A stretch of DNA of 64,000 nt. Source: Yuukianura sp. NJ FZ-2021. Lineage: Eukaryota. The position numbers and the translations under genes were made by a program. Within the stretch, counting starts at the first letter, position 1, and the number at the start of each line of letters is the position of its first letter. Under the pieces are notes generated by a model. That model saw only the letters and a list, made by a program, of their open reading frames with translations. It was not told the DNA's origin and searched no databases. Shown piece after piece: positions 15,223 through 62,460 of the stretch. Where the stretch lies: positions 9,548,001-9,612,000 of the forward strand of contig CM102289.1 in the NCBI GenBank assembly GCA_046563655.1, given 5' to 3'.

Positions 15223-18200
15223 TTACTTTTGTAATTTATCCCCTTCTTTAGCAATTTTGATTTCATGATGAACAGAATCCTTAGTAGATGCTGCAGTACG
15301 TTCTGAAAACGTTTCAGAATTGCCAAAGTGAAAAATGTCAGCAGATTGTGTACCGTCTGGTCGACCTTGTTCAACAGTTTTGTAAAATTCAGTTGACTTT
15401 GGCCTATCTACTCCAGATTCTGCTGTGGTTGACTCCAAATGTTTCGAGTAGTGACCGAATTCAAATGCCTCTGATTTTTCCCGGTCATAACTTTTCCAAG
15501 ACCGTTCTTCACGAAAAGTCTCTTTGTTATAAAATTTTCCAACCTGAGGTGAATCGGTACGAGCGCGAATGAATTGAATCGGCGTGGTGGTGACAGAAAC
15601 GTATTTGGTAGGTGATACGGATCGTCGTACTTGCAGTTCTTCGTCATGCTCAACTGGACTTTCTATTGGACGAAGATAGAACTTGCATTCTTCCGTTTTA
15701 GTCATAGTTGTCGTCAGTTGTTTGTGTTTTTGAAGTGTATCGGATATCGGTTCGGCCACTTTGAAATTCATTTGGTCTGTCGTGATTTTTTCAGGTTCGG
15801 CCGTCTTCCGAATCGGTTTTGGAGGCGGAACCGGTTTCTGGGCAATCGGTTTTGCAATTGGTTTAGGTGGTGGCACGGGTTTCTGAAAACGGAAATTCAA
15901 AATTTCATAAAATTTCAAAATCGCTTTTTAAATTTCAAAATACTGAACCTCTAAGTTTGTCGACTTTGGTCGTGGTTCGTCCCAAGTTTTGGCGGTAAAA
16001 GTGGTCGGGCGGAATTCATACGCCGACATTGGACGGTTTTGTCTCGAACTTGGTGGAATCCAAATCGGTTCGATTTTGAACGACTCATAATCTGATTCAT
16101 AGTCGGATTCAGTAAATTTGGCGGGAACAAATTTCGTTGGACGCCGGATTCCCGCTGCATTGTTTGAATTTGAAGCAGCACTTTCTGGACGTGAATCTAA
16201 AAATGCTGGGCATACTGGAGATATTACTGGAGAGTCCACGCCATGACAGGAAACATGCTCAGAGTAGTTCGTCTGGAAATTTCTACTGACTGAATCGTAT
16301 TTTGAAGTTTCACGAACCGAACTGATTCGATACGCCGGTCCGGCTGGAGAAACCGGAGTGTCGTCAGGGTTACCTTCAAAAAGTTGACGAAAATGACCAA
16401 CCTTCCCTCTGGCGGGAAATTCCACTTGGATTGGCACAGTTCTTGGTGAGTGCGGCTGAATTTGAGTTTCCCGCTCTTCTTTTGTCTCAGTTTCAAACAT
16501 TTTCCGGTAGTCCTTGACTTTTTTCCGGGGAAATGTTTCATAACTTCGGTTTTTGGCACTAATTTCATTTGTTTCCTCGGGAAAATCAACTCTAGTTGTC
16601 ACTGTTTCTTCGAAGTTGTCAAAAAATCGTTTCGTTGTGGTCACAACGGATTTCGGACTTTTGAGTTCGGCCGGAATTCGGTTTGAACTGTCTTCAGTTG
16701 GTTTGACCTTGACTTCTCTCCATTCATTGGATAAACGGCGTCGAGGAGGAGGAGCTTGTTTTTGATTGGTCGGAGTAGCACTCTCTATGTTGATTTGACT
16801 GTTTAACGCGTTCACCAACTCCAATACAGATGGACGTCTGTCTTCAGATACTTTATCCTGAAAAAAAATTGTAAATTTTTAGAAATTTTTGAAAAGTAAT
16901 AAATTTTTAGAAGTTTTTGAAATTCTAAAGTTAGTTTAAATTGGACCAACATTCTGAAATTTGTTGTCTGGTTCTTGCACATTCGACTGAGTCGAAAAGT
17001 TGCGTAGAAGTTGCGGTGATGCTTCGTGCGTTTGCGTGATGCTGTCAAATTGCAATTTCGGTTCCTGGTTCGTTCCTGTCGTTTCGTAAGTCGTTTCAGA
17101 CTCTTTGCAAGTTAAAATTCGTTTTTTGGAAATGAGTTCCGGTGATTCAGATTTAACAGAAGTTTGAGTTTCAGAAGTCAAAAGTAATTTCGCAGGGCTT
17201 TCTGGTCTCAAGTTTCCAAGGTCACCGGCAGCATTGACCTCCGAAGTTTTGGGCATGTCACTTTGAACAGATTTCTCCGAAACTTCAACTTCATGTTCAG
17301 GAAGTGTTGGCGTCTGCGTTTGAATTGTGGAGAGTAGTTTTGCAGGTTGTTGCATCACTAGAACAATTGGTTCTGGAGATTTTTCAGTCAGCGTCTGTGT
17401 TTCAGAGTTGGCAATGATCTTGGCATCTCTCTCGGACGTTTGTGTTTGCATTGTGGACTGCTCAAAGATTGTTTGCACTTCGTGGTCTGAAACGGCCGAA
17501 AAATAATCAGCGATTGGTTCAGCGAAAGCGAAATTATTCGGGTTTTGAGAAACAGAATGTTCACGTCGCTGATTTTCTTGAGTCGGCGCATTGCCGTTGG
17601 GCGGCAAAAGTACTTCTTGCCTAATTACTTCTGTAATTGTTGTTGATTCTATCAAAAAAAAATCACAAATTATTGAATTACAAATTACATAATTGCAATA
17701 TGAATTACATACGAATTGTTTATACTATGATATGTTATATTATTAGTATATTATATATTATATTTTAATATTTATATATTTATATAGCAATATTACGGAA
17801 AATGTTGCGTTCCAACTCCATAATTTCGCGAATGTACAGAATCCGATCCGGTTTTTGAATTAATTCATAAAATTGGAGGCATTGCAGAATTTTGTTTTTC
17901 TTTTCGTACATTTTCTCGATGAGTTCCAGCGGCGGATTATCCATTTCCTGTAATAAGTAAAAAAAAATTTTTTTTTTGAATTTCAAAAATTTTTTGATTT
18001 TTTAGCTTTTTTCATATTCATACTTCTACTATTGCTTCAAATTTTTGAAAATCCCGCAAATCACTTCGAGCGGTATCCAGGTTTTCCGGAAGCGGGAAAT
18101 CCAAAGTTTTGAATAAATGTTCCAAATGCTCCTCTCTCAATTTTTGAGCTTCCAGTGCTTCCCTTTCCGCTGCTTTTCGTTTTTCTTCAGCGTCAAATCG

Positions 18201-21200
18201 CTGTTGAGCTTCAAGGTCAAGTTGGATTTGAATTTCACGGTGACGCTGCAGTTCCAGCGCCTGCCTTCGCTGTTCTTCCAGCGCTTGTTGCTTTTGCTCT
18301 TCTGTTTTTCGCTGATTTTCTAACTCAGTTTGACGTTGCTTTTCAACTTCAATCTTTTGACGTTCAAAATCAAGTGCTTTTTGACGTTCAAAATCAAGTT
18401 GTTCCAGCTCATGTCGCTTCTGCTCCAGCTCCAGCTCCAATTGCTGTTCAAGCACTTTGTTTTGACGTTCACGATCTAAGTTAGCTTGACGAAGTTGACG
18501 TAGACGTTCGTTCTCTACGTCAATTTCAAGTTGACGCAAAAGCTCAGCCTCACGAAGACGTTGACGTTCGAGGTCTTCCAATTGCCGTTTTTGCTCAGCT
18601 TCGGCCCTTTGACGCTCCAATTCTTCCAATTGACGTTGCCGTTCATCGTTGATTCGTCGCTGATTCTCTTCAAGTTGACGCATGCGCTCTTCTTCTGCGG
18701 CTTTTTGCCTTGCTACTTCTTCCAATTGACGTAGCCGCTCCTGTTCAACTTTTTGACGTTCTAGTTCAAGTTCATGACGTATTCGCTCCGCTTCGGCTTT
18801 TTGTTTCTGCAGGGCGTCAAGTTGACGTTGACGGTCGGCCTCTAATTGCCGCTCGTGCGTTTCCAGTTGACGTTGTCGCTCGTCATCTTCTTTTTGTCGC
18901 TGAAGTTCTAGGAGTTTGCGCTGTTGCGTCAATTCTTGCTTTTGACGTTGAAGTTCCTCTTGGATAAGTTGACGTTGTGCTTCTTCCAGTACAAGTTGTT
19001 GCTGAAGTTGCTGCTCGAGCTGCTGTTGGTGAAATTCGGCTTCGGCTCGTCGCTGCTCAAGTTCCATTTCGGCTTGACGTCGTTTTTCCTCTATTTCGGA
19101 TTGTTGACGTCTTAGTTCCTCTTCGGCTTGTTGACGGTTTTGCTCAATTTCGGCCTGTTGACGCCTCAACTGGTCTTCAGCTTGTTGAAGTATCAGCTGA
19201 GCTTGGGCTTGTTGACGCATCAATTCTGCTTCGGCTTGTTGACGTATTCGTTCTGCTTCGGCTTGTTGACGTTCAAGATCAGCTTGTTGACGTCTAAGTT
19301 CAGCCTCTTGACGTAAACGATCTGCTTCAGCTTCTTGACGTAAACGTTCTGCTTCATCTTGTTGACGTTTAACTTCTGCTTCAGTTTGGAGACGTAACTG
19401 TTCAGCTTCAGCTTGTTGACGTCTCACTTCTGCCTCAACTTGTTGACGTATTTGTTCTGCTTCAGCTTGTTGACGTCTAAATTCCTCTTCACTCCGCAAT
19501 TCTTCCAGCTTTTCCTGTTTTTCGTTTTCCGCGTTGATTTGTTCTTCCAAACGAGTTTGAGGAGGGCCGCTGTGCAATCCATACGATTCTTCAACCAGAA
19601 TTTGTTCCTCAAGTTCATTCAAATTTTCAGTTTCCCGCTCTTGTAATTGAACTTCCAATTTGGCAGGTTCATTGCCCTCGTTCAGGTCACTGTCTCTTGC
19701 TGTTTGACGCAAACGAAGCAACTTGTTGTGAGCTTCTCTCGTGTCCAATGTAGGGTCCTACAAAATCAAAACATAAATATAAGTCTGGTATTACTTAATA
19801 AAAAGTAATAAAAATGACCGATAATTATTAGATGCTAATTAATGGGTTACTTTTAAGATTTAAAAAAAGCACGATTTTGGTCTGAAACCCTCTAAAATGT
19901 TGTTAATTCTTCATTTATAAAAAATTTTGTTTTTGTCCAACACCACCAAACCTTCCAATTTTCTACAGAAGGACTTTTGGAAAAAGTCAGGATTAGGCTA
20001 ACAAATTCACTACAGTGCATTTTCCTTTTTTATGGAAATTTAAAAAATTCCAAAATATTGTTTTTCTGAAACACCATCACACCTTCTAACTTTCTACAGA
20101 AGGACTTTTGGATAAAGTCAGGATTAGGCTAACAAATTCACTACAGTGCATTTTCCTTTTTTATGGAAATTTAAAAAATTCCAAAATATTGTTTTTCTGA
20201 AACACCATCACACCTTCTAACTTTCTACAGAAGGACTTTTGGAAAAAGTCAGGATTAGGCTAACAAATTCACTAAAGTGTATTTTCCTTTTATATGAAAA
20301 TTTAAAAAATTCCAAGATATTGTTTTTCTGAAACACCATCACACCTTCTAACCTTCTACAGGAGGACTTTTAGAAAAAGTCAGCATGTCGAAAAAAATTG
20401 CTAAAGAAAACTTGTGAAGGATGGAGGGGCCAGAGCGAAGGCCCAATACGGACGCTTAGTATGCTGTTAATTCCAACAAAGTAAACATCAAGAACAAAAA
20501 TGTGAGTACCCAATTGCAGATAGTTTCGATGTGGCCCTCACTGAACGCAGTTGGATTTTCCACCATGGCGTCAAATTTCTTTTGAATTTCGTATCTCGTT
20601 GCGACAGTTTCCCTTAAAGGATTCGGAACTTCAGCACGGCAGCAAAGATCTGAAGAAAGCACAGCAGCATAGGAATTTTCAAATCCAGGAGCATCCAGGA
20701 CGTTGTTGGCGCTCAAAAATTTTGCAACGGCTTCAGCTCGATTCAAAAGTTCACTAAAATGTTGACATTTTGCACTCAGAGTGGCTCTTTTTGGAAGTTC
20801 TTCATCTTTGTCAAAGTTTTGCAAAACGTCTTCAATGTTCTTAATCTTTTCTTTCAGAATCTACCCAAAAAACGAAAATTAGAAAAACGCTTTTGTTTCC
20901 AAATTTTGTATTTCACTAACCAAAATTTCTGATTCTTTTGCTGCAGACGATCCCAGACTCGTGTATCGGACTTCCACATCTTTCATTTCATCCTCAAAAT
21001 ACTCAAACAGCGATTTCAGTGAACCGGTTTTTGCAGCGCGAATTTGAGCTAGCGCTGAAGCAATGTCCAGACCAGGATCCTGTGTACAAAAAGCAGAAAT
21101 TTTTGAAAAAAATTACTGGAAATGTTGAACTGAGTTCAAAGTTTTTGTTTTCTTGCCAAATTGAGTAATTTTTCAATGGCTTCGTCTTCATAATCGAACG

Positions 21201-22797: not shown

Positions 22798-24250
22798 TAC
22801 AACTATCACAGAAGCCTAAAACTTTTCAAAACAACTTTTCAAAATTTGGAATGAAGTGCAAAACTGTGCACTTACGACCTACATTTTTCAGTTTCTATTA
22901 GTAGTGATGTTCTAATGGGAAAATAGAAAGCGTCATCACTTTACACAATTTGGAAAAAGACCTCAAGATTCCTTTCGTTAAAAATACAAAACCGTAGGCG
23001 GTCCGAGACACAGCGACGCTCAACTCAAACTGAAACTAAAATTCTTGGAATTTGGTTTACTTTTTCTCAACGCTTAAAGCGTCTTTTAGCATTACCAGAC
23101 TGGTAATGGTGCTAACACAATTGGAAAAGACTAAAAATCGACTAAAAGATCATCTCCCATCGGTATATTGGTGTGAACCAGATGTGCAATTTCGAGGTTG
23201 TCTAAAAATAGTACTTTTTTTTTTTAAAAAAATAGTCTACTTTTCAGAATCTTGAAGGTAACAAAAGTACTATAAGCCAAACACTTTCAAGGATTGACTG
23301 GACCAGAGATGCTGGGCGGTCGTCTACTTTAAAAAAAATGAAATTTTGAAAAAAAAAGTGTTTAGTAAACATTGTCCCTGTGTAACATTAGCTAGTTTTA
23401 AAAGTGAAAAATTTGGAAAGTGGAAATGAGGCAAGACGCGTGGTTGCAGGATGAAGCAATTTAAAAAAAAAGTTTTATTTTTTTTAAAAAAAGTGTTTAT
23501 GTTTAGAACAAGGTTTGAAATGAACGACTGAGGGTTTCTATTCATAACAAACACGTAAATCACTGCTACTGTTTGCATTTGGAAAAGTAATTGATTGGCG
23601 GTAAAATGGAACAACCAGCAAACTATCGACGGATGAACGCTTCCTTCTGGACTGGAGCCAAATTTCAAAATTTAAAACCAGAAAAATCTATCATCTTTAA
23701 CCCAAATAGCACACAACAATTTTTACTTTTGTTTTTTTTCCAAAGGACGCTGCGTCGATGTTTTGTTTCTTCGTGTACGAAAGAAACTGTTTATTGAAAA
23801 CCCGTAAAAAATTCATATTTACAGTAACGTTTTACGGATTTTTACAATAAAGGCGGCGATTTTAAAACTGATGCAAAGTATGCAAATCTTTGAGTAATCT
23901 GTGTGTTTTTTTTTTGCATTTGTCGTCATTTTTATAGATGTGTTTACTTAACCAACTTTTGAGCATAAAGTGCGTTCCAGTGAAGAAGTAATTAGTTTTT
24001 GCATAAGTTTTGCAAAAACCAGGTTGTAGACAACAACCTATACTATCCTTACAATTTGTAGTATAGTTAGGTTTGTAGAAGTTTTTTTTTTCGCTAGTTC
24101 TGTCGTCAGTTCACCTTGGAAGGTGACACAGAACTGTTACTGAAACAAAAACTGCTGTTTGGCGTTATCGTTTTAGTTGAGCTGACACAATTTCGCAATG
24201 TCAGAGGTCGTTGACCTTGAAAAATTACTTTAACCGTATGGGTGCCACTG

Positions 24251-24510
24251 GTGTCACAATTTGTGACACACGTCGGAGTAGTGCCAAATTTTTGAAAGAA
24301 ATTGTGACGTAGAAGGTGGGGGATTTTATATGTCACGGGAAATATTTTTGGCTGCACAAACGGACCCCAAACAACACCCTACACGCCTCCATATGCAGAG
24401 GCGGATTTTTTAAAATAAAAGCGTCAAAATTTTGCCATACATTCCCCTGTGTCACAATTTGTGACACCCAGGGTCAACACGCGTTGTCAGCTGTGTCACA
24501 ATTTGTGACA
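24251..24510. promoter_or_regulatory. Three copies of the palindrome GTGTCACAATTTGTGACAC upstream of the H3-like gene
   Basis: Copies at 24251-24269, 24449-24467 and 24493-24510; regulatory role is inferred only. Confidence 0.5.
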
Positions 24511-24740
24511 ACTTTTTTTATGAAGACTAGCCTATGGTACTTTTTGTGCCTCGACTAGTAGCACCGACCGTGACAAAACCGATGGTAGCCGTACGGTTAA
24601 AAGGTAACGCAATAAAATAATATAGCTAACTTATTCATAATTATTGAGTTGTGCTCAATGGAGTTATGCATAAGGTACAGAAAGTTCTGGTGATGCGAAC
24701 CATTTTTTTTTGTTCTTTTTATTTACAGTAAACTGTAGAA

Positions 24741-26259
24741 ATGAAACGACGCTCGCGCAGAACTTCCACAACTGCCTGGACCATTGTCACTGAAAATCCT
24801 CGCAAGCGACAACGCAAAGATGACAACGAGCAGCATAGGGCCAATAAGAGGCGTCGCAAATGCCTGGAGTGCGTTTGCAACTCACGTCGAGGTCAGATCT
24901 TGACCACGTCCACTCCAACACCAGCACATCTAGACGGAAACTCATCAGTAGTTCGTGACTCGTCACCTCATGTCAACATGTCAGTGTCACGCATTGCACC
25001 GTCCGGAGATGAAGGTGGACACCTTCACTTGACACCTCCAACCACCGACTCATCCCAGGAAATAGTAGTTCCGCCAACACCGTCCTTTGAGAAGAAACGG
25101 ATTGTCTACGTAAGGTACACGTAAACTCAAAACTAAAATTACACAAGTTACATAACTTACATAAACTCTTGGATTTTTCATGTCAGGAGAGTCGAGACTA
25201 AGAAGAGGGGAAATGCTAAAGTCAAAACTTCGTCAAAGGGGAACCCGGACAATCCAGACGCTGGAACGCGCAGGACTGACACTCCCATTCCAAGTCCTGG
25301 CATGCATGACTCCGATACTCCTACTCATGACCCCGACATTCCTAACACTGATACTCCTATTCCTGCACCGGACATTCCTAACACTGATGATACTCCTATT
25401 CCTGCATCGGACATTCCTATCACTGATGCGCCTATGCCTGACCGGGTCACTGTTGCCGATGACACTCCAATTCCTGACCCAAACACTGTTGCCACTGTCA
25501 CTTCAATCACTGACCCGAACACTGTAGCCATTGTTACTCCAATTACTGACCCGAACACTGTTGCCGCCCCAATTCCTGACTCAAACACTTTTGCCGCTCC
25601 AATTCCTGACCCAAACACTGTTGCCGCTAACACTCTACTTCTTGATCCGAACACTGTTGCCACTGTCACTCCGATTCCTAACCCTGACACTGTTGCCGTT
25701 CACACTCCAATTCCTGATCCGAACACTGTTGCCACTCCAATTCCTGACCCAAACACTGTTGCCACTCCGATTCCAAACCCTAACACTGTTGCCATTCAAA
25801 CTCCAATTCCTGATGCAAACACTCTTGTGTCTGCTGCAACGTCAACTTCCAAAAAACGTTCCCGGATATTCTCTTCTATCACTCTAACGCCGACCTTAGA
25901 AATTCCGGTGATGGAAGTGAAGCGATTGGTAATGGAGGTGCTGGCTCAAGTCAATCCGCAGCTTAGAATTCAGTTTGGAGCTATTATGGCACTACATGTA
26001 AGTTAATTGTAAACCATCTCACTGTAAAAACCAAAAAAAAACATTTCCAAATTTTTTTCAAAATTTTCAGGAACTTTGTGAGGAGCACATCACTTTGTGG
26101 TTTTCGGACCTTAACCTTTGCTCACAACATGCTGACCGCTCCACTGTCACGGAGACTGACGTTCTTTTGCGGAAAAATTTAATCCAAGGCGGTAAAAACC
26201 CGTACGCCACTCGTCGCAGTGACCCTGACGACACCGAAAATGACGACTACTACTACTAG
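24741..26259 (+). CDS. Divergent histone H3-fold protein with very long N-terminal tail (~457 aa; exons 24741-25114, 25187-25997, 26071-26259)
   Basis: GT-AG introns with matching phases give one open frame ending LEIPVMEVKRLVMEVLAQVNPQLRIQFGAIMALH|ELCEEHITLWFSDLNLCSQHADRSTVTETDVLLRKNLIQG, which aligns without gaps to H3 [73 protein letters not shown]. Confidence 0.85.
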
Positions 26260-27263: not shown

Positions 27264-29077
27264 TTACTGATCCTCATCGCCTAGGTTGTGCTTTACTTTA
27301 GAAAAATCAAACTCCTCTCCAGTCCCGCGCTTGAAAATGTCCAGTACATCCAAACAGGTTGTTTCAAAGTGAGTGGTTGCATCATAAGATTCAGAAATGA
27401 ATATTTGAGAGTCAATTCCAGAATCCATGGGTTCATAGTAGTCAGACACACTGATAAACCTGTACAAATTAACATAAATCATTACATTAATTATCAATTT
27501 AAGTAAAGGTGTTTCAGTTGTTAATTACTTTTGCTTGATTGGACCAAGAAGGGCTAAGCCTGGCTGAATTTCTTGCTCGGGGTTGGCCGTTTCCACAGTC
27601 GTAGAGACCATACCGACAAACCACCCTTTCGCAGCGACTTGATGAGTGTTGCTCACCATTGACACATAGATATCTAAAAAATAAGAAATGTTGAAATACT
27701 TGCGAAATACTTGTCCAGCACATGCTGATTCAGGATATCATACCTGATTTGCGATTAACTTGCTTTTGAGGAATAATGATCTGAGTGGAAAGTGCATCCT
27801 TGGTGTTTGGAATAGGATGATCCAAGAGACAAATACAACGGACGACTTGTCCAACCTTCTTCACACGGTTAGGAAGGTAAGATGGATCGCAGTACACCTA
27901 AGTAATTATACATTTTCATTACAAAAACGTCAACAACAAAATTGCCCACAACAAAAATGTCAACAGAAAGTGAATGTTGGTGAAACCCAGACTAGCTTAG
28001 CAGTTTTGGACTGTGACTGTACCTGTTTGCATTTTGCAACTTCATCGCCAGATTTCACTCCAACTACTTTGCCATTGTCGTCCAACACGATTTCATCAAC
28101 TTGTTTGTCCAGCATGTACGTCCCGCCATAAATTGCGCTCAATCTGAATTCAAATAATTGCAATTTACTTTAAAAAAAAGTGACAAAAATGACAAAATTA
28201 CTGCAAAAGTGACGTTTGGATACTTACCTTGCAAATCCTTGAGGAAGTTCTCCCAATCCGTACATTGGATACAAGTAAGGACTCTTTCCATATCGAGCCA
28301 GTGAGTCCGAGTAGAGTCGAATTCTTCTGATTGTCTCCAGTGCTGGTTTCCGAATGTAGTCATCGTCTCGCATCAACGCCAGAGCATGCCCAGTGAAATC
28401 TTGAGTGTTGGCATCCAATCCAAACTTCTCATAAAGTTGCAACACAGTTTGGGTCCTGGGATCAAAATCCTTCCATGTCTTCGGATCGTCTTCCTTGAAC
28501 TCAGCGACGTAGCTCAAAAAGTTCTTGAACCGACGTTTCTCGAAAAGTCCCATCAATTCTAATTAAAAAAAAACAGCCATTAACGTAACCATAGTGCCAA
28601 GTATAACCACCAACGTCATTTGTACTCACCAGAGGTAAGTGCCTCTCGCTCATCAGCTGGAACTTTAGCGATTTTCCCTCCCTTGTAGACATAACTGCCC
28701 TCGACGGACTTGAATTCCAAGTAGCGCGTAACTCCAGTGTGAATGAGCAATTTGACAAGCTGCCCATTAGCCATTAGAAACTTCGGAATCAGATCCACGT
28801 TCCAGTCTCTTCCACGGCCATACATTTGCTCATCGGGCTTCGGGTAATCGAATTTACTAAAAAGATCTTCCAGTGGAGTCATGGATGCAGTTTCTCCGCC
28901 GTAGTACTTGTTTCGATCAATATGCAGAACCTTCTTTCCAGAAACAGACAGCATACCGCTCAGGATACATTCCTAAAGTAACATATTACAACAGTTTAGT
29001 AATTGAATACATTTGACTATGTTCATGAATACCTTCAGTCCAGTTCCAAGAACAATTGCGTCGTATGATTCATCCAT
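27264..29077 (-). CDS. GDI: Rab GDP dissociation inhibitor, multi-exon
   Basis: [103 protein letters not shown]. Confidence 0.97.
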
Positions 29078-31106: not shown

Positions 31107-31197
31107 TCGTGTTCCACATGGTTTGCACTACAACAGGTGCCGGGAATTTCAAAAATCACCAGAGCACCTGATGAAGTACAATTGACAATGGACACGG
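31107..31197 (-). ncRNA. mir-305: pre-miR-305
   Basis: Minus strand 31182-31160 reads AUUGUACUUCAUCAGGUGCUCUG (mature miR-305-5p); pairing arm CGGCACCUGUUGUAGUGCAAAC at ~31142-31121. Confidence 0.95.
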
Positions 31198-50897: not shown

Positions 50898-50970
50898 GGC
50901 CCTGTGGCGCAATGGATAACGCGTCTGACTACGAATCAGGAAATTGCAGGTTCGAGTCCTGCCAGGGTCG
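50898..50970 (+). tRNA. tRNA-Arg (ACG)
   Basis: 73-nt cloverleaf: acceptor GGCCCTG/CAGGGTC, anticodon arm TCTGA-CT-ACG-AA-TCAGG, T-arm GCAGG-TTCGAGT-CCTGC; T-run terminator at ~50980. Confidence 0.95.
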
Positions 50971-57630: not shown

Positions 57631-58118
57631 CGCTTCACGCCTGAAACACATAGATCACGTTAATAATACCATAACTTTAACTGAACACAACAATATTAAT
57701 ACTACTGCGGAACTGCTGTAAATAAACCGTAATCAACTGTACATCAATGTACGTAAACCTTACACAAACCGTACATAAACTGTATACACATACTTCTCAT
57801 TGCTAAACGTAAAGGTCACAGGTCGGCTGGTGACACTTACCAAGTGGAGAGGTGGATGAACGTTTCGTCAATGCTTATCTTGCCGGGTTGTCATAAACAA
57901 CTTAGCTTTTGCTATAAATCTGTCACCCGAATTCCTTAACCTAAAGTAAATCGAAAAGTTATGTTAACAAATCTCCATTTTTGTGTTATTTTGTTTACAA
58001 ATATCCTCTTTTACCTTCTCTTCGTATGCGGAGATGCGAATGTGAATGTACGGAAGCGTAAAAGGGCCAACTCGCTTCCCGATTACCTCCTCCATAAGCA
58101 ATACATTGGAGTTGAACT

Positions 58119-58500
58119 GCGCGGTTCCCAGTACTCGGTTCCCGGTTCCCAGTACTCGGTGCGCGGTTCCCAGTACCCGGTGCGCGGTTCCCAGTACTCG
58201 ATTCCCAGTTCCCAGTACTCGATTCCCGGTTCCCAGTACCCGGTGCGCGGTTCCCAGTACTCGATTCCCGGTTCCCAGTACCCGGTGCGCAGTTCCCAGT
58301 ACCCGGTGCGCGGTTCCCAGTACTCGATTCCCAGTTCCCAGTACTCGATTCCCGGTTCCCAGTACTCACTGCGCGGTTCCCAGTACCCGGTGCGCGGTTC
58401 CCAGTACTCGGTACCCGCTTCCCAGTACTCAGTGCGCGGTTCCCAGTTGTCGCTGCGCGGTTCCCAGTTGTGCTGCGCGGTTCCCAGTTCTCGCTTCCCA
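58119..58500 (+). repeat. 21-bp minisatellite (GCGCGGTTCCCAGTACTCGGT-type), left arm
   Basis: About 18 tandem units visible. Confidence 0.95.
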
Positions 58501-62075: not shown

Positions 62076-62460
62076 CTGGGAAGCGAGAACTGGGAACCGC
62101 GCACTGAGTACTGGGAACTGGGAACCGCGCACTGAGAACTGGGAACCGCGCAGCGAGAACTGGGAACCGCGCAGCACAACTGGGAACCGCGCAGCGACAA
62201 CTGGGAACCGCGCACTGAGTACTGGGAAGCGGGTACCGAGTACTGGGAACCGCGCAACGAGAACTGGGAACTGGGAACCGAGTACTGGGAACCGCGCACT
62301 GAGTACTGAGAAGCGGGAAGCGAGTACTGGAAAACGCGCACCGAGTACTGGGAACCGGGAATCGAGTACTGGGAACCGCGCACCGAGTACTGGGAACCGC
62401 GCACCGGGTACTGGGAACCGCGCACCGAGTACTGGGAACCGCGCACTGGGCATCGAGTAC
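62076..62460 (-). repeat. 21-bp minisatellite, right arm (inverted counterpart of 58119-58500)
   Basis: Tandem ACTGGGAACCGCGCACCGAGT-type units. Confidence 0.95.

Follow-up and report, generated by a model that had tools for sequence, protein, structure and literature searches.

Three open reading frames, read from stop to stop at 24732-25124, 25137-26006 and 26002-26259, occupy three different plus-strand frames in the 64,000-nucleotide stretch of DNA analyzed here (the window). The locus raises the question of whether these frames belong to a single gene for a variant of histone H3 and, if so, whether the product is a centromeric histone (CenH3), another kind of H3 variant or a kinetochore protein of a different histone-fold family.

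Gene model and splice junctions

Joining three exons from these frames through two GT..AG introns gave a coding sequence of 1374 nt, or 457 codons (Table 1). This result agreed with the initial annotation, which had proposed that the gene was divided among several open reading frames and that splicing would restore a product of 457 amino acids. The splice between exons 2 and 3 was independently supported, since the alignment with H3 crosses this junction without a gap and the alignment score approximately doubles when the two parts are joined. The intron at this junction (ALH/EL, equivalent to H3 Q93/E94) matches what we take to be an intron position of H3.3 genes.

Table 1. Features of the H3-variant gene and of its surroundings in the window
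Feature	Coordinates	Strand	Details
MITE-like element	24229-24601		140 bp upstream of the start codon of the H3-variant gene
Exon 1	24741..25114	+	Start codon; codons 1-124 and two bases of codon 125; three NLS-like basic clusters, C-x2-C-x-C, S/T/P-rich stretch
Intron 1	25115..25186	+	72 nt; AAG/GTACAC ... TGTCAG/G
Exon 2	25187..25997	+	Residues 125-395, with a basic stretch, the P/T/D repeat array, a short linker of basic character and the first fold half
Tandem repeat array in exon 2	25314..25827	+	Periods of 30-39 nt; encodes ~15 P/T/D-rich units
Histone fold, first half	25896..25997	+	Residues 362-395 = H3 60-93 (alpha-1, loop 1, start of alpha-2)
Intron 2	25998..26070	+	73 nt, phase 0; CAT/GTAAGT ... 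TTTTCAG/G
Exon 3	26071..26259	+	Second fold half, C-terminal extension and stop
Histone fold, second half	26071..26187	+	Residues 396-434 = H3 94-132 (rest of alpha-2, loop 2, alpha-3)
C-terminal extension and stop codon	26188..26259	+	23 acidic/aromatic residues
Rab GDP dissociation inhibitor (GDI) gene	27267-29077	-	7 exons; tail to tail with the H3-variant gene
mir-305 precursor	31115-31190	-	Rfam score, 71 bits (gathering score, 66)
tRNA-Arg (ACG)	50898-50970	+	

The predicted junction that links exon 1 to the remainder is the least secure element of the gene model. A competing donor, GTAAGG, is found at 25110, 5 nt before the GTACAC donor at 25115 that keeps the frame; use of this competing site would shift the frame and lead to a stop after five codons. 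These observations would fit a mis-joined model in which the 25110 donor is the one used, exon 1 is out of frame and the product begins elsewhere, for example at M164, giving a protein of ~294 aa. Against this possibility, a donor similar to the weak-looking one of intron 1 is used nearby: one intron of the neighboring Rab GDI gene, whose introns are ~57-122 nt long, has the donor CAG/GTACAG. A possible 5'-UTR intron (24675-24728; AAG/GTACAG ... TTTACAG/T), read by eye, lies directly before the start codon.

Histone fold and tail of the predicted protein

The spliced protein was compared with canonical H3, with a copy taken from a fused gene model (P0006) serving as the reference. Residues 362 to 432 aligned with H3 60 to 130 without a gap, with 27 of 71 residues identical (38%) and 38 positives; the identities were spread over both halves of the fold, with 13 of 34 in the part encoded by exon 2 and 14 of 37 in the part encoded by exon 3. 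The Smith-Waterman score was 126, against a mean of 25.8 (standard deviation, 4.5; maximum, 55) for 2000 shuffles, for a z-score of 22. In phmmer, the spliced protein scored 38.8 bits against H3 (E 6e-9 at Z=177,635, a PDB-sized search space) and 1.0 bit against H4. The gap-free H3 fold that had been claimed for this locus was therefore recovered as a 71-residue ungapped alignment spanning the exon 2/3 junction.

Searches were also made with single exons. Exon 3 alone matched 157 distinct PDB sequences at an E value of ≤10, the best match (E 0.0022, 21.4 bits) placing query residues 1-36 on residues 95-130 of H3.1. The name histone H3 was carried by 59 of the best 60 of these 157 matches, the exception being 7xcr_E ("Histone domain-containing protein"). 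As a half-domain query, exon 3 alone scored 18.2 bits against the Pfam Histone family (PF00125), for which the cut-off is 26.4, and the 54-residue end of exon 2 alone matched no PDB sequence and no Pfam family.

Several residues characteristic of the H3 fold were kept in the alignment, namely, R69, R83, C110, H113, R116, T118, D123 and L126, as the initial annotation had stated for all of these other than T118. We take C110, H113, D123 and L126 to be positions that build the H3-H3' four-helix bundle in nucleosome structures. The losses that had been reported were likewise present, with R63 replaced by P, K64 by V and R72 by M, as were the substitutions of Q68 by K, F84 by I and T107 by L. Loop 1 had the same length as in H3, with no gap through alpha-1, loop 1 and alpha-2, and so was not lengthened, as previously claimed. 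Conservation differed between classes of residue: hydrophobic positions were kept at 21 of 27 sites and basic positions at 4 of 12 (H3 60-133; Fisher p 0.012). The basic positions lost were R63, K64, R72, K79, K122, R129 and R131, together with K115, which was replaced by D. The fold had a net charge of -4, compared to +3 for H3 60-133, and a pI of 5.2. Overall, two features by which histone H3 family membership may be judged were found, namely, significant H3-specific fold similarity and a conserved fold core with the R116/T118/D123 set. By these sequence comparisons, the predicted protein is a genuine, very divergent and fast-evolving H3-family variant behind a tail of ~360 residues. The part of the initial interpretation that described a divergent H3 fold with a giant tail thus stood, and the two identities that it had offered, a CenH3 or a new lineage-specific variant, were both left in play.

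The initial annotation had also drawn a parallel with CENP-T on the basis of the long-tailed architecture. The parallel held for the architecture, as both proteins have a disordered, TP-rich N-terminal region and a C-terminal histone fold, the candidate having 16 TP dipeptides in its tail. It failed for the fold, which is H3-type by sequence. In Pfam searches, exon 3 scored 23.4 bits against CENP-S (cut-off, 28) and 16.3 bits against CENP-T_C (cut-off, 28.1). The CENP-S score was higher than the Histone score of the same exon, which would favor a kinetochore histone-fold protein of the CENP-T or CENP-S family over an H3, but all three scores were below their cut-offs. A control with the same half of canonical H3 gave 66 bits for Histone, 17 bits for CENP-S and 12.7 bits for CENP-T_C; since canonical H3 yields similarly weak scores, the CENP-S and CENP-T_C matches were taken to be generic histone-fold cross-hits. 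Furthermore, no CENP-S or CENP-T name occurred among the best 60 of the 157 PDB matches, and the H3 score doubled to its full value when both fold halves were joined. Membership of the candidate in either family would accordingly be very improbable and, as judged from sequence, is close to refuted.

The region upstream of the fold was unrelated to the H3 tail. No similarity to H3 was detected upstream of residue 362 by alignment or phmmer, alpha-N was not recognizable, and exons 1 and 2, queried singly, had no match in Pfam. The canonical H3 tail is lost, in line with the earlier claim. Basic clusters were located at residues 2-7, 21-26 and 36-40 and were followed by C-x2-C-x-C at 41-46, so that the basic clusters and cysteine motif previously described all fell within the first 46 residues. 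The Pro/Thr/Asp repeat region that had been noted was resolved into 11 tandem units of 10-12 residues (DPNTVA..TPIP), preceded by ~4 related units, with a higher-order unit of 168 nt in 2.3 copies. At the other end of the protein, the acidic tail that had been described corresponded to the 23 acidic/aromatic residues that follow alpha-3.

Several frames are open across the repeat DNA, so that openness on its own is weak evidence of coding, a point which favors the mis-joined or decaying models. Variation among the 11 tandem units was, in contrast, biased by codon position in the frame of the model (13/3/16; chi-square p 0.013, with units that are not independent), and single-step codon differences among the repeat units comprised 52 synonymous and 46 nonsynonymous changes. 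Together with the in-frame exon indels described below, this bias and these counts indicated that the repeat is translated in the frame of the model.

Variation, relatives and host lineage

Variation was read from the contigs of four DNA runs belonging to two studies, and a 3001-base stretch was compared. Among the differences listed, at least 20 were coding substitutions, with 8 synonymous and 12 nonsynonymous changes (pN/pS 0.50, one-sided p 0.10); this stretch held 82 more differences, and likewise 22 further indels, besides those listed. The contigs of run X1 explained nearly all of its differences, and this run had at least 4 synonymous and at least 9 nonsynonymous changes, for a pN/pS of 0.76. 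In or beside the fold, the differences listed consisted of four replacements, I356T, Q379E, D408E and T424S, all conservative, and no synonymous change, while Y455 and Y456 differed in all four runs. Exon 1 had two synonymous changes and one V-to-I replacement among the variants listed. The exon indels among those listed (21 nt and 1+2 nt) were in frame and inside the repeat array; length changes of +2, -1 and -4 nt were found in intron 2 and of -1 and -2 nt in the flanks.

These results indicated that short-term variation is indistinguishable from neutral, a pattern compatible with rapid change, which may be adaptive, as well as with relaxed constraint. The latter would be expected if the gene were a relaxed, decaying duplicate, and the pN/pS values of 0.50 to 0.76 among the differences listed, which do not differ from 1, are consistent with such decay, as is the loss of half the basic residues that face DNA. 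However, the 457-codon frame is intact and the core is conserved in a fold that has diverged from H3 by 62%, which implies long-term selection. The codon-position bias of the repeat, the in-frame exon indels and the mild changes listed for exon 1 also argue against a decaying or mis-joined gene. Overall, a model that is partly wrong or a gene that is losing function was considered improbable.

Searches for relatives were performed with separate parts of the protein. A word-indexed protein search with the half of the fold encoded by exon 2 returned three candidates, none at an E value of ≤10. No ortholog was found in an exhaustive phmmer search of exon 3 against 1.84 billion protein representatives, a search that would miss relatives scoring below ~33 bits on 62 residues. 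Six matches at an E value of ≤0.001 were examined and rejected as orthologs: P0001 and P0002 are repeat proteins by sequence, P0003 (3829 aa, with five short matched stretches) looks like a repeat protein, and P0004 to P0006 are fused gene models with several copies of canonical H3. A metagenome scan with exon 3 gave no match, and a locus obtained in the scan with the exon 2 tail (L001) was discarded as a chance match lying off the frame of a bacterial-looking contig. The clusters that exon 3 retrieved in the ESM Atlas were all of a generic histone-fold type and fell below 0.9; they serve only as leads. No second H3-like gene was found within the window.

The host lineage was examined by means of the Rab GDI gene, whose nearest database protein was 91% identical. 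A tree of 42 rows was built with 41 database proteins chosen from 120 matches listed; 34 of these 41 carried organism names, and the other 7 were top matches without a name. The window sequence fell in a clade of 10 rows with 100/100 support that contained all three springtails and unnamed sequences, and the 31 named insects and single unnamed sequence that made up the remaining 32 rows stood apart from this clade; crustaceans were not in the set. The host is thus probably a non-insect hexapod, a springtail. The window also contains a precursor of mir-305, an arthropod family; no mir-275 partner was detected in the window at the Rfam gathering threshold. In the literature searched, no paper on a springtail centromere histone was found by title, and the names Collembola and springtail were absent from a 2026 centromere atlas preprint.

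Other features of the window were recorded as side observations. The MITE-like element has 24-nt imperfect terminal inverted repeats that end in TTAA-like words, and it contains a 15-nt near-palindrome in three copies (6 strand matches against 0.01 expected). Its depth in the DNA contigs was several-fold above that of its flanks. In runs X2 and X4, part of the contigs skip the element, which is thus an insertion polymorphism. Two inverted 21-nt minisatellite arrays (58118-58493 and 62084-62446; 18 and 17 copies, respectively), located ~3.6 kb apart, are both open in all six frames. On the minus strand, a 579-codon open frame (18018-19757) is Q/E/R-rich with coiled-coil-like low complexity, and further large exons lie near it at 15223-17724.

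Centromeric histone or another H3 variant

High divergence, a long tail and fast evolution in an H3 variant are the known habit of CenH3. To our knowledge, almost every animal H3 variant on record that combines strong divergence with a long tail is a CenH3 or a paralog of CenH3, and we know of no described CenH3 with a tail as long as the ~360 residues seen here. Since divergent long-tailed variants in animals are essentially all of this type, CenH3 was ranked above a non-centromeric variant. The leading interpretation is that the gene encodes the CenH3, or a CenH3-type paralog, of the springtail lineage, an assignment made tentatively and with a little less than even confidence.

Extracts of PMC7052976, PMC7598501 and PMC4359364 give in silico rules by which a CenH3 is recognized, namely, an insertion in loop 1, divergence of the tail, divergence of the fold and an alpha-1 helix that lacks its glutamine. 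Three of these four features were found in the candidate, which has a tail unrelated to that of H3, no glutamine at the alpha-1 position and a divergent fold; the fourth was absent, with no residue inserted in loop 1. Tribolium cCENH3, as described in an extract of PMC7598501, has neither F nor T at the equivalents of F84 and T107, and its fold is 51% identical to that of H3, compared to 38% for the candidate. Both of these positions are also replaced in the candidate. The two replacements, I and L, are presumably not the residues usual in CenH3. As in Drosophila Cid and Tribolium cCENH3, an H3-derived fold is located at the C terminus behind an unrelated, long and fast-changing N-terminal tail, and amino acid changes occur between strains. 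These between-strain changes would also fit CenH3, the differences listed in or beside the fold being replacements of a conservative type.

Flies and mosquitoes have CenH3 paralogs with distinct tails according to an extract of PMC7306699, in which both Cid paralogs of Anopheles gambiae are single-exon genes; the candidate, in contrast, has two introns. Other properties count against CenH3. The length of loop 1 is as in H3, and hence the most used criterion fails. The net charge of the fold is negative and basic positions are lost, at 8 of 12 sites, alpha-N is not recognizable, and the 23-residue C-terminal extension is atypical of H3-family proteins. The failure to find orthologs among 1.84 billion protein representatives also weighs against this assignment, as does the short-term variation, which among the differences listed is indistinguishable from neutral. 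Relative to canonical H3 and H3.3, the candidate is alike in being gap-free over H3 60-130 with the kept residues listed above but differs in lacking the canonical tail and alpha-N, in its identity of 27/71 and in the reversed charge of its fold.

The absence of a loop 1 insertion would also suit an H3 variant that is lineage-specific and non-centromeric, such as one of germline- or domain-specific chromatin, whose origin may lie in an H3.3- or a CenH3-type gene. Its H3 fold may enter or mimic nucleosomes, with the long tail as an effector platform. According to an extract of PMC7052976, the non-centromeric H3V of trypanosomatids is recognized by a divergent tail together with the absence of both the alpha-1 glutamine and a loop 1 insertion, and the profile of the candidate exactly matches this rule as opposed to that for cenH3. 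As the H3V rule is the same profile without the insertion, the in silico rules do not decide between CenH3 and another variant. The acidic fold, the C-terminal extension and the lack of an ortholog among 1.84e9 representatives also point to a non-centromeric protein. However, H3V is a kinetoplastid protein from another eukaryotic supergroup, the likeness is confined to the in silico pattern, and neither homology nor orthology is claimed. Furthermore, the positions for self-association are kept as in nucleosomal H3, and the precedent known among animals is essentially one of CenH3s. This alternative was considered doubtful, although it merits more weight than a mis-joined or decaying gene.

A more far-reaching proposal, and one that we regard as rather unlikely, is that the protein is not centromeric and represents a new lineage-specific class of H3 fold. 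Such a protein would have kept the H3 core and self-association and would have given up much of the DNA-wrapping surface, as its acidic fold and its lack of alpha-N and of a loop 1 insertion would suggest. With the same low likelihood, its TP-rich repeat tail and acidic/aromatic C-terminal tail would form a CENP-T-like recruiting platform, and the protein would be an H3-derived adaptor that assumes a share of kinetochore or other chromatin scaffolding in springtails.

For the CenH3 interpretation, the following mechanism is proposed. The protein would pair with H4 and, as the kept positions suggest, would self-associate like H3. It would take the place of H3 in a small fraction of nucleosome-like particles, in which wrapping of DNA may be looser or altered through the loss of basic fold positions and of alpha-N. 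The disordered 360-residue tail and the acidic/aromatic extension would provide a docking surface for partner proteins. The protein is unusual in detail and yet is probably not a new kind of protein.

The literature searched contained no description of a centromeric histone from a non-insect hexapod. If the candidate is a springtail CenH3, then a loop 1 insertion would not be a dependable criterion in arthropods, and the protein would be an extreme case of tandem-repeat expansion of the tail. If it is not a CenH3, it would provide a rare case of an animal H3 variant that is both deeply diverged and non-centromeric. In both cases, the gene offers a concrete target for antibodies or tagging with which to map centromeres in a lineage at the base of the story of CenH3 loss in insects.
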